Source: a virus (lineage: Duplodnaviria > Heunggongvirae > Uroviricota > Caudoviricetes). Taken from it: a stretch of 39,038 bases of DNA. Numbering within the stretch: position 1 is the stretch's first letter; each line of letters opens with the position of its first letter. Positions 12,001-18,000 of the stretch are shown here, in pieces. Made by a program: the position numbers. The DNA is taken from the IMG/VR virus record IMGVR_UViG_2721755725_000014; one strand, written 5' to 3'.

Positions 12001-15000
12001 GCCGTGTGGCGGTCCTTCAGGGCGCTGAAGCTGTAGCGAAACCCCACGCCGTTATCATCCACCACCACATCGCTGTTGGTGTACGGCCACACCACATCCG
12101 ACGGGCGGTCCTGAACGAACGTCAGCGTCTGGCCGTTCCATACCGGCATACAGCGCATCGCCGAGCAGAAATCACTGAGAACGTCCCACGCCTTACGCTG
12201 TTGTGACAGGTACGCATTAAAGGTCATCCGCGGCTCTGTGCCCCCGAAACCATCCGGGACCGTCTGGTCGCAGTACTGCCCGATGGCATACAGCGCCCAC
12301 TTGTCCACATCCGCCGCCCCCAGACGTTTTCCCATGCCGTAGCGCGGGTGAGTCAGCATGTCCCACAGACACCAGGCCGGGTTGTTGCTGTATGCCGGTT
12401 TCAGACTGCCGTCCCAGATACCACTGTACGTGCGTTTTTCCGGGTCATAGTTTGACGGCACCTGGATGATGCGACCGCGGATATGGTAGTTCACCGTCAT
12501 CTGCTGGCCGCCGAACTGCTCCGCATCCACCTGCAGCCCCACAATGGCCGTGTTCGGGTAGCACTGTTTCACATCGATGATTTCGGTGTATGACGACCAC
12601 AGCGTCTTATTCTGCAGCTGGTCCGTGGTGCTGTCCGCCGTCTCCCTGACCATCCGGATGTTAAAGGGCCGGGGAGGCAGATTATCCAGAATCACCGAGG
12701 CCAGGAACTGTGAGGTGGTCTTGCCGTTAATGGTGACATCCTTTTCCGTCACCCAGTTACCGTTACGCTGCAGCTGAATCAGCAGGCGGACGGATGCCGG
12801 GTTACGGTCACCCTGTGAGGTGGTCTGCACCAGTGACTGCACCCCGAAGGTAACCCGCAGGCGGTCAATGTTCGCGGACGTAATGGTGCGCGTCACCGGC
12901 TTTGCCTTCGTCACTTCCACGCCCAGTGCGGTTTCAGAGCCGGATGACTCAAAACCTTCCGGCGGTGTCTGCTCCTGCTCCCCGGCGCGCCAGACCGCGG
13001 TCACACCGTGTATCACGGGATTGCCGTCCGTGTCCGTCAGTGGGGTTTTGTTCACCAGAATACTCTGCAGCCCCTTCACCGGACCTTCAATCGGCCCTTC
13101 ACCAATGGCGTCAATCACGCTCATCATCTGCGTGGACTTAAGATTGTCCTTTGCCTCTACCGGCGTGTGCCCCTTGCCGCCCCCTTTACCCACTCTGTCC
13201 CCCTCTCCTGTCTGATGTCTGAATCTGTTTATGCCAGAAAACAACAGGCACCCCGGAGGGTGCCTGTGTCATGACGGAATAAAATTTCTGAAACTCTTCA
13301 CATTTCCGGCAATTGCCTGTAGCCGCAATAATGACGCTGCATTACTTTTTTGATGCCTGAAAAATAACTCCATAACGTTAATCTTCATCGTTCTCTCCCG
13401 CAGCTCCGCTAACTCTGCGGGATTTTTTTATTTTCATCCCCGCCCGATAACCACCACTTTCCCGTCTCCGCCCTCATCACGGGTGCTGATGTCCTGGGAT
13501 ATCCGTCGTGAACCAACCAGCATTTCACCATAAGGCACCGGCATCGGGTTCCCCTGGGCAATCATGTTATCCAGTGACGAAAAATACGTGTTCTGTTTAC
13601 CGTTATCCGTCGCCCTGTACTCCGGTGTTTTTGCCTTCGGTGCCAGCATCTGGGCCACACCGCCCAGTATCATGCTGGCACCCAGTGAGAACAGCATCGT
13701 GGTGGCAGTCAGCCCTCCGGCACTCAGGGCTGCGCCCCACAACGCCATCGTTGCGCCGGCGGTGAAGAAAGAGCCCACGATGGCTGCTGCCCCCAGCACA
13801 ATCTGCAGTCCGCCCTTTCCGGCCCCGGCCAGTCGCGGCACAATGTGGATGACCGCCCCCTCACCCAGAGGTTCGTGAAGACGGGCGTACACCGCCTCCG
13901 GTGCCGTGTCCTCACCGCGAATACGTATCTGGTACCAGCCTTCGTTCATCTGACGGCGGAATCCCGGCATCTGCAGCGACAGGGCACGGATGGCTTCCGC
14001 TGCCGTGTTCACGTACAGGCTGAGGCGGCGGCCAAATCGTTGCAAATCCCCGTGAAGGCAGATGCGTGCCAGTGGCGGTGACGCCAGACAGAATGCGTTC
14101 GTCGTTGCCATTTTTCAGAATACCTCTCCCGTTTACTCAGTTGTTCAGGCAGATGGTGAAGCAGTTCACCGTTGCCGCAGTATATGGCGGCATGATTGGC
14201 CACCGATGCGCCAAAGCAGCACAGCAGGATATCGCCCGCCTGTGCAGAGGACAGGGGCACCCGGTAAAAACCAGTCGCCGCCATATTGTCCAGGTAAAGG
14301 TTCTGACCGTTGCGCCACCAGTCATCCTCACGCTCAAAATCCGGCAGCGTTATCCCCGCCAGATGGTATGCATCCCGGAACAGGGTGTAACAGTCCGTCA
14401 CCCCGTGCTCAAAACGACGCCCGGTCAGGTGCGGCACACAGCGGAATTTATGAATTTCCCCCCGGCAGACCAGCCACCAGGGCAGGGCACTCTTTATCTG
14501 CAGCCGCCGGTCGGCCTCGCTCAGCCAGGGCAGACCACCAGGGTGGCTGTGAACCAGCGCCACAATCTCCCCCTGCATCTCTGCCTGCAGCCAGTCTTCC
14601 GGCGCAATACGAAAATACGCCTCCGGCTCTGCGGAGATATTCACGCAGGGCTGGTACCGTTCGCCCTCCGGGGTGCCTATCACGAAGCCGCACGACTCCG
14701 CAGGCGCACACCGCCGGGCATGCACCAGAATCGCTGATTCAGTCTGTGTCATAAAACAGGATTTACTGCGAAAGTTTATTGATGGAAAGGAAACCGCCAA
14801 AATTAGCCACCATGCCGCGCATCTCACACCCGCGCATGCACTTGCTGCATCTGTCCTTACGGATATCCGTGGTGGGGTTGTCGAACTCATCCGCCACCGC
14901 AGGACCGTTATACCCGCATTCATCTCCCCGGTAATCCCACATACAGGTATTCGCCAGCATAATGCGACCGGGAAACAGCGCTCCGTCCGTCTCCGTCGGT

Positions 15001-18000
15001 GTTGCCAGCACAAACGAGGCCGTCATGGCCGTCAGCTCTGACATCTGCTCCACCACCCAGCGGTCGCTCAGCTCCTGCTCCGGGTCCGCTTCCGGATTGC
15101 CCGCCACAAAATTCACCGCATCCAGAAAACGCGCATACACCCGGCGGCGGACCACCGTGGCCCCACCAGGCTCTGCAGGTCCTCCGCCATTCCGGTGACC
15201 AGACCGAACAGATTCGACACCGTCAGCGACGGGCGGGCACTGCTGCCCTTCCCGTTCATCTCAAAACCGCTGCCGTCAATCGGGTATGCCTGATATTCCC
15301 GCCCCTGCCAGGTAACCGCCTCCCCTTTTTCATTCAGCTCATTGCAGAAAAAATACCGCTCACCACCCTGCACCGTCAGGTCGATTTCCCAGAGTACCAC
15401 CCGCGGTGACTGCTCTGATTTAACCGACTCGTTCAGACTTTCTTCGTGAATATCCTGCATCAGTTCACCACCTGCTTAAACTCCGCGCTGAACTCAACGC
15501 GCAACATCCCGACCCGCGCAGACCACCCGGCACAGGTCACCTTTATCTGCCGGTATGCATAGGGTGGCTTCCACAAAAATGCCTTCCAGCCTCCGTGCTC
15601 TGCCAGGAACGCTTCCAGATGCCGGGCCTCCTCCCGGGTCACGGAAAGCGTCACACGGTATGTTTTCAGGTCAGCATTCAGCCCTGCCGCCATACGCTGT
15701 GAGTACCCATCACCAAAACGCACTTCACGCACCGATGGCTGCGAGTTCACCTCCATATCCGGCTTCACTTTCCAGCGAAAGGTTTTCATCGTCCGCTCCC
15801 TGATAACATACCGCCATCACGCAACTGCAGCCGGAGTTCATCCTGCGCCCCCTTGCGGGCCATGTCATACACCGCCTTCATCAGCTGCGGCCCCGCCTGT
15901 CCGTTGATACCGTCGTTCTGAATCACCACGTGATTGTTCTGATTAAAATTAATACCTTCCGCCCGCCGCATCTGCGCCGGACTTCCGGCACCACCCACAT
16001 AACCACCTTCCGCATAGCCGCGCATCAGACGGTAAAGATTCCCCACACCTATCCGGCTGGTTGCCTCCTTCGTGAAGACAAACTCCCCGCGATGAACAAT
16101 TCCCGCAGGTTCATATTTACCCCCCGTCCCCGTAAATCCCCCGGTCGCGAAATGGAAGTTCGCCGCCGCAGCCTGAATGGCCGTCCCCGTGGAGGCAGAC
16201 GCACCACCACCGAAAGCACCGCCAATGGCGCTGCCGATACGCCCGACAATGCCCACCATGGCCTGTTTAAGCAGGATTTCTGTCATCATGGACAGCACCG
16301 AACGGGTGAATCCCCGCCAGTCTGCCTCTGCACCGGTCAGCATCGCCGCCATATTCTGTGCAATACCGTCAAAGGTCTGCGTGGCCGCGCTTTTAACCTG
16401 CGAAAAACTGTCCGTCGCACTTTCTGCCCACTCGCCCCAGCCGGACTTCAGACCGGCCATCCAGCTTCCACGAAGCTGCTCCTCCGCAGACCAGGTGTTC
16501 TTCAGTGCAGATGTGGCCTTCGCCAGCGCATCCGGATTATCACCGTACACGTCACGAAGGCGCTGCTCTTCCGACTCCCGCTGCACCTGACGGTCGGTGA
16601 GGCCCCGCGCCTGGGCACTGATTGCCGCCTGCTTCGCGCCCTGCTGCTGCTCAAACCGCGCAGCCTGCTGTGCCAGCTCATTCAGGCGTTTCTGGTATTC
16701 AACCTTGTCGCCCAGCTCAGCCAGCTGGCGTTTGTACTCCAGCGTCTCGTCTTTATGCGCCAGCAGGGATTTTTCCTGCTCAGATAACTGTCGTTTCGTG
16801 GCAGCCTCTTTCAGGACCGCATACTGACTTTCCGCCTTCCATAAATCGCGACGCTGCTGGCTGATTTTCCCATTCGCACCGCTGTGTTTTTCCAGCGTCC
16901 GGAGCTCGGTTTCAAGCGCCAGCAGGGCAGCATGCGCCTGGTCTTCCTGACGCTCACCGGCTGACACTTTGACTCCTGACGACTTCGGCTTTTTCAGCGT
17001 CGATTCATAATCCTTTTTCGCCGCCGCCATCAGCGTGTTGTAATCCGCCTGCAGGATTTTCCCGTCTTTCAGGGCCTTATTCAGTTCTTCCTGACGGGCG
17101 GTATATTTCTCCAGCGGCATCAGCAGACGCTCATACGCCTTCTGCGCCTCTCCGGTATACTTCAGCTGTGATGCGTCCCGTTCGGCCCGGTCCCTGGCGG
17201 CCAGTTCACCGGCTTTTTCCATATCCGACTGCAGCGTGGCCGCTGCCAGCCCCAGACGGGCATTTTCCCGGTCATTCCATGCGCCCTGAAGGTTGGCCCG
17301 GAAAGAGGAGGTTTTACCGCGGCGCTGGCTCCGACTCTGGTACCACTGCCATTTTTTATCCGCCTCATCAAATGCCTTCTGCGCACTGGCGAGCATATCC
17401 GCTGAGGATTCCGGACGACCGATATCCAGAATGGCATCCCACATCGATTTGAATGCCTTCCCTGTTTTATCCGCCCAGGTCTCCAGTGTTCCCATGTTTT
17501 CTTTCAGGCGACGGGTCTGCTCATCAAAGCCTTTCGTGGCGATATCGTTCGCCGCCTGCAATGCCCCGGCCTCGTCTCCGGAACGCTGCAGCTGTGCAAC
17601 ATACGCAATCTGCTCTGCCGTCACGTTACGGAACTGGCGCGCCATCGCCATCAGTCCCGACGTCGGGTCAGTGGTCAGCTTCCCGAAGGCTTCAGCGACT
17701 TTATCCACCTCCACACCGGATGCAGACGCAAAACGCGCGACACTCTGGTTGATGGCATCAAACTGTTCACCACCACGCACACCGGCATTCACCAGGGCTG
17801 CCAGTGACTCTCTCGCCTGGTTAAACGTCAGCCCTGCTGCCTGCCCGGCTCTTGAGAGAGTCAGCATACGATCGGCAGTCAGTCCGGACTGATTACCGGA
17901 AAGAACCAGGGTTTTATTAAACGCTGAAAGCGTGGAATCCCCCTGGTACCAGGCGTACGCCAGCGCACCTGTCGCCACCGCCAGCGAGGTGACCCCGACC

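Follow-up and report, generated by a model that had tools for sequence, protein, structure and literature searches.

The gene for the minor tail (tail-tip) protein L, gpL, was examined in a stretch of DNA of 39,038 nucleotides (nt) from the IMG/VR record IMGVR_UViG_2721755725_000014 (hereafter the window), which holds a lambdoid prophage of Escherichia coli O111, from the enterohaemorrhagic (EHEC) O111:H8 clonal lineage. The prophage lies between ybhC and ybhB/bioA, in the region of the lambda attachment site (attB-lambda, gal-bio). Our analysis indicates that its L gene is very probably a genuine, vertically inherited pseudogene that arose by the loss of one G, and that the lesion most likely then spread among co-resident lambdoid prophages. 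The deletion is real and inherited and has already been flagged as a pseudogene in databases, so that the finding, taken by itself, is correct but ordinary. The presence of the same lesion in several prophages of one genome goes beyond what had been proposed in an earlier interpretation of this DNA made from the sequence alone (the sequence-only reading).

One missing G in the tail-tip gene L

The L pseudogene as a whole occupies 14763..15460 on the minus strand and measures 698 bp, compared with 699 bp for an intact copy. The sequence-only reading had described two overlapping open reading frames (ORFs) that jointly cover gpL, and both are present as given, down to the sequences at their ends. 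The 5' ORF (15113..15460, minus strand; 115 aa) encodes native residues 1-100 and then 15 out-of-frame residues (PRWSAAGCMRVFWMR) before a stop, its C-terminal end reading ...LQSLVGPRWSAAGCMRVFWMR immediately ahead of that stop. The 3' ORF (14763..15155, minus strand; 130 codons) opens with (GTG)VRRRVYARFLDAVNFV... and encodes residues 103-232. About one base had been suspected to be missing from the G-rich run near 15150-15165, and when the gene was aligned to an intact relative (699 bp) and to strain 11128 of O111, the loss was located as a change from five Gs (G5) to four (G4) at gene nt 297-301. The four Gs of the coding strand appear as C4 at 15161..15164 on the plus strand. The comparison with L of a related prophage, part of the check proposed for the split, showed a single gap, with the intact 699-bp copy from an O157:H7 genome reading CTGGTGGGGGCCACG and the window reading CTGGTGGGGCCACG. 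The G5 run of the intact allele covers codons 99-101 (GTG GGG GCC). With the 1-nt deletion, the gpL frame is left after Gly100, a stop is reached 15 codons on, and no single L frame of ~232 codons is present.

The two ORFs also divide the profile of PF05100 (Phage_tail_L) between them. The 5' ORF matched profile positions 3-74 (E = 2.8e-29, 102.4 bits) and the 3' ORF positions 75-206 (E = 7.6e-55, 185.8 bits), both scores lying above the curated cut-off of 25 bits and placing both fragments in the family, and an intact 232-aa relative covered positions 3-206 in a single match (306.8 bits). The division of the profile between positions 74 and 75 therefore indicates one gene cut at one point. 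The intact relative aligned end to end with lambda gpL (PDB 8iyk_L; E = 4.6e-124), and the locus sits between M and K in the operon order H-M-L-K-I-J, the position of a member of this tail operon.

The HDI beta-sandwich of lambda gpL is made up of residues 1-166, and residues 154-232 form an iron-binding domain in which the [4Fe-4S] cluster is held by Cys173, 182, 205 and 212 (PMC10721106). The break after residue 100 falls within the beta-sandwich, and the translated product loses all four cysteines. These are kept in the 3' frame (NTCMWDY, DECGY, DRCSKC and RGC, aligned with lambda Cys173/182/205/212), which corresponds to the remainder of the HDI beta-sandwich and the [4Fe-4S] domain. Lambda genetics has established that L is essential for the formation of the tail initiator. 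Because the break removes the cysteines and L is essential in lambda, the window copy is predicted to be null. We propose that replication slippage in the five-G homopolymer at codons 99-101 dropped one G; the product would be truncated 15 residues past Gly100, and would lack the rest of the HDI beta-sandwich and the entire C-terminal [4Fe-4S] domain. The window prophage copy would then be unable to supply gpL, which lambda requires for assembly of its tail-tip initiator. The protein could be provided in trans by intact copies of L located elsewhere in these genomes.

Distribution of the G4 allele and the tract shared between prophages

The 698-bp allele was found with 100% identity in 32 complete E. 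coli genomes and with 99.9% identity in one more, all of them of the O111:H8/H-/NM type and including the reference strain 11128. These 33 assemblies, which come from different laboratories, are concordant, and the neighbouring genes are intact. The allele in 11128 is ECO111_RS04325 (NC_013364.1 873984-874681), 100% identical to the window L and labelled “phage minor tail protein L; frameshifted” by PGAP (Prokaryotic Genome Annotation Pipeline)/RefSeq. The whole window is 99.95% identical to NC_013364.1, and its first 25 kb show 100% identity with several O111 strains.

The occurrence of the two alleles was further examined with a G4-specific 40-mer, whose seeds match only when the run is exactly G4. 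It was found at 81 places in 46 of 5426 genomes, with 1-4 places per genome, as against 5011 places in 1804 genomes for a G5 41-mer. Of these 46 genomes, 41 are O111 strains, and the remaining five (O121 RM8352, O121:H19 16-9255, O26 RM8426, 99-3311 and PNUSAE008406) are singletons, with L haplotypes unlike that of O111 (4-20 differences over nt 1-296). In RM8352, 99-3311, PNUSAE008406 and 16-9255, the tape measure and other neighbouring tail genes also carry the label “frameshifted”, as does gpJ in RM8426. Their G4 states are probably long-read homopolymer errors or cases of separate decay. No G4 was found in 50,697 phage records, 150 of which have this L type, all of 699 bp among the records listed, and IMG/VR holds 5 G4 contigs versus at least 120 G5 contigs. 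A literature search provided background on prophage pools and on the structure of gpL, and found no paper on the O111 L lesion.

More than one prophage per genome carries the lesion. One IMG/VR draft genome contains three G4 contigs, two of which have an L allele 15 sites off that of the window, and with this divergent allele as the query, 26 complete O111 genomes proved to contain a second frameshifted L. The second copy in 11128 is ECO111_RS08580, in a prophage beside ompW/trp, and a third copy lies in a prophage beside yodB in strain 05-3004. The number of G4 copies of L per O111 genome ranges from one to four, alongside several G5 copies (four in E2855).

The three G4 copies agree over nt 1-328 of L and differ only further downstream. 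The maximal exact match of the window to the two other G4 prophages is 704 bp long (15133..15836, minus strand) and runs from the 3' end of H through the whole of M to nt 328 of L; the tail modules around it are only ~92% identical. A difference-free run of 704 bp is unexpected by chance at ~8% divergence, and the tract therefore indicates identity by descent rather than a separate slip in each copy. The 5' haplotype of the O111 G4 allele is absent from the G5 alleles sampled, the nearest of which is 1 site off and the next at least 4; the A66 single-nucleotide polymorphism was uninformative, as it is present in about half of the G5 alleles.

The locus is polymorphic among O111 strains. Strains 95JB1 and FWSEC0005 (both O111) carry the same prophage, with the same portal gene cut by an insertion sequence (IS), and an intact 699-bp L. 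The sequence-only reading had named a single continuous L ORF in corrected sequence as the observation that would overturn the split; no such ORF emerged for the O111 lineage, and an intact L is nevertheless present at the same locus in these two O111 strains. Compared with 95JB1, the window has 33 differences in the interval L-739..L+302 (15159..16200, minus strand) and matches 95JB1 outside it. At 30 of the 33 sites, the window carries the bases of the other two G4 prophages, suggesting that this mosaic interval is a recombination or gene-conversion tract between co-resident prophages. Most likely, the lesion has a single origin and was passed on by homologous recombination or gene conversion among lambdoid prophages residing together.

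Several points weigh against this account. Three of the mosaic sites (L-448, L-446 and L-376) are private to the window copy; the donor copy may be unsampled, or more than one event may have taken place. The exchange may have run in either direction, as an import of G4 into the window prophage or as a restoration of G5 in 95JB1 and FWSEC0005. The module of the ompW prophage showed 100% identity in ~25 O111 genomes, with 95JB1 not among the best 60 matches listed, and this search for the origin of the lesion was insufficient to polarise the event. Further, the frameshifted copies are identical or nearly identical, so that they show no drift after inactivation that would prove neutrality, and the loss of function is a prediction from sequence.

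An Stx-converting prophage was also considered as a carrier of a G4 copy and was rejected, since no stx genes are annotated for the third copy, in 05-3004. In that prophage, ISEc47 (IS66 family) is located just downstream of the tRNA genes that precede a SASA (nanS-type) esterase gene, and nothing bearing on transmissibility was found for this third copy. In the two other G4 prophages, the tape-measure gene is 66 bp longer than that in the window (2646 vs 2580 bp), and the T part of the G-T chaperone gene is labelled “missing C-terminus” (L129 and L130 16678..16980).

Alternative explanations

The sequence-only reading had allowed for a sequencing error, that is, a homopolymer under-called in one assembly of a gene that is truly intact. 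The lesion does lie in a homopolymer, the classic place for long-read indel errors, and the five non-O111 singletons, with their neighbouring genes also frameshifted, resemble error-prone assemblies or separate decay. The caveat did not withstand the occurrence of the same frameshifted allele in 33 independent complete genomes including 11128, together with the intact flanking genes of the G4 O111 genomes and the restriction of G4 to a lineage, not scattered; an error was therefore rejected as extremely unlikely. The 11128 genome is reported to have been Sanger-sequenced by Ogura and colleagues in 2009. A mutational hotspot, from which the G was lost independently in each prophage copy, is unlikely as well. 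The occurrence of G4 on other L haplotypes, in O121, O26 and others, suggested that the site can change, or be mis-called, more than once. Within O111, however, the G4 copies share the identical 704-bp tract in modules ~8% different, their 5' haplotype is found on no sampled G5 allele, and the window copy is a mosaic relative to 95JB1, and its foreign tract agrees with the other G4 copies. Identity by descent was preferred for O111, and independent hotspot events there were rejected.

We also considered readings in which the G4 gene would still yield functional protein. If tRNA-Gly slipped by -1 on G_GGG, moving from nt 298-300 to 297-299 (candidate slip-site sequence of the G4 allele, CTGCAGAGCCTGGTGGGGCCACGGTGGTCC), and reading continued with GCC ACG GTG..., the product would be wild-type gpL. 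Perfect re-pairing in the P site is possible, the slipped product would be the intact protein, and the allele is maintained in as many as four tail operons per genome that are intact in other respects. In contrast, the site (CUG GUG GGG CCA) contains no canonical X_XXY_YYZ heptamer, and its four-G run would permit single-tRNA slippage only. A 116-nt segment covering the site and the sequence that follows it has a minimum free energy of -46.9 kcal/mol and is no more stable than shuffled sequences (mean -46.7; z = -0.06). More than 98% of the copies in this context are in-frame G5 (5011 vs 81 places), G4 is absent from the 50,697 phage records, and the persistence of the allele is accounted for by recent origin plus recombination. 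As the heptamer, the stimulatory structure and the conservation expected of a programmed frameshift were all lacking, such a frameshift was rejected, and recoding of this kind is considered very unlikely. We attach an equally low probability to the G4 allele being a strongly attenuated tail-tip gene copied among O111 prophages, which would throttle tails without abolishing them. Phase-variable homopolymers are long, typically of at least 7 nt, and vary in length among relatives; the L tract has 4-5 Gs, and G4 is fixed on one haplotype in O111, in contrast to the C10/C12 tract of cif in the same prophage. Finally, a functionally split gene, with the two ORFs translated separately and the fragments assembling into a working gpL, seems hardly credible. 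The second ORF has a GTG start, with GGTGGGG 5 nt upstream as a possible weak ribosome-binding site, but the break at residues 100/103 lies in the middle of the HDI beta-sandwich (lambda 1-166; PMC10721106) and not at a domain boundary, no split L was seen outside the O111 clonal lineage, and no promoter-like site was found in 14700-15900. An internal promoter and separate expression of the 3' ORF were rejected on the same grounds, that is, the lack of a promoter-like site and a break inside one structural domain.

State of the prophage and comparison with known systems

The inherited L pseudogene stands in a tail operon that is otherwise intact, as the sequence-only reading had held: Z, U, V, G, T, H, M, K, I, J, lom and stf are uninterrupted and equal in length to the non-pseudogene coding sequences of 11128, and the head genes C, D, E, FI and FII are likewise uninterrupted. 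The truncated portal that it had invoked was also recovered, as a 212-aa C-terminal remnant of gpB (24710..25348, minus strand), which adjoins and is cut by an IS1203/IS629-type element. The portal gene of an intact relative measures 1593 bp, and the remnant is labelled “incomplete; missing N-terminus” in the FWSEC0005 annotation. The earlier view of a decaying prophage turned out to understate the damage. No terminase, repressor/immunity or replication genes were found in the window prophage, and in the region beyond the IS that cuts the portal gene (~25300..39038) the nin-Q-esterase-holin-lysozyme block is inverted, lying on the strand opposite the late operon and adjoining int and ybhC. The layout and the missing genes are consistent with IS-mediated inversion plus deletion. 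The window prophage is already immobile and survives as a vehicle for type III effectors, having kept espJ, nleH and a frameshifted cif, plus a DUF1076 pseudogene.

In cif (5359..6197, minus strand), a run of 12 Cs near the 5' end (6161..6172) shifts the reading frame, and the gene is labelled “frameshifted” in 11128 and FWSEC0005 too. In O111 strain 95JB1, the tract is C10 and the gene is intact (837 bp); slipped-strand mispairing could vary the length of the tract. A 1310-bp IS1203/IS629-type element at 1866..3175, between espJ and the effector/pseudogene region, is absent at that place in 11128 but is found in several O111 strains with a 100% match to the window. A further IS1203 divides the lysozyme gene in 11128, a copy that the window does not have. 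A gene for an LpxR-family lipid A deacylase, as annotated in 11128, forms a moron in the nin/Q region (29933..30892, minus strand), on the strand opposite to its neighbours.

The L lesion alone has little weight, being one more inactivating lesion, flagged by RefSeq, in a grounded effector-carrying prophage. The 1-nt deletion on a 704-bp tract in up to four prophages per genome provides a traceable marker of inter-prophage recombination, and the polymorphic locus among O111 strains offers a concrete, datable case in which a defect was spread or erased by recombination. Exchanges of this kind bear on the ease with which effector-carrying prophages of EHEC can regain or lose the ability to make tails. 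The O121 and O26 singletons also call for caution, in that homopolymer frameshifts of tail genes in single long-read assemblies need confirmation at the level of the reads.

The window L belongs to the same family as lambda gpL (PDB 8IYK/8IYL/8K35; PF05100), and has the same length when repaired (232 aa) and the same gene order, H-M-L-K-I-J; it differs from lambda gpL in that its frame is broken after codon 100 and no full-length protein is encoded. The tail operon also contains the site of the programmed -1 frameshift of lambda G/G-T; in the window, G and T lie upstream of L, as ORFs at 18786..19217 and 18346..18759. The slippage in G-T is conserved in long-tailed phages and takes place on a canonical slippery heptamer, whereas the L frameshift is restricted to a lineage and has neither heptamer nor stimulatory structure, L being in frame in most relatives. 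The closest counterpart, ECO111_RS04325 of O111:H- strain 11128, is 100% identical to the window L and lies at the same chromosomal locus; the window derives from a sister O111 strain, and the two prophages differ by 15 substitutions over 32 kb, by the extra IS1203 at 1866-3175 in the window and by the IS in the lysozyme gene of 11128. The wider setting resembles that of the Sp prophages of O157 Sakai, which are lambdoid, with near-identical morphogenetic modules, inactivating lesions in most of them, and effector cargo (Asadulghani et al. 2009, PMC2669165). Recombination and complementation between prophages are well documented for the Sakai pool (PMC2669165). To that picture, the O111 lesion, which does not appear in the Sakai-pool paper (PMC2669165), adds a single lesion that is followed, on an identical tract, through several prophages in the same genome.

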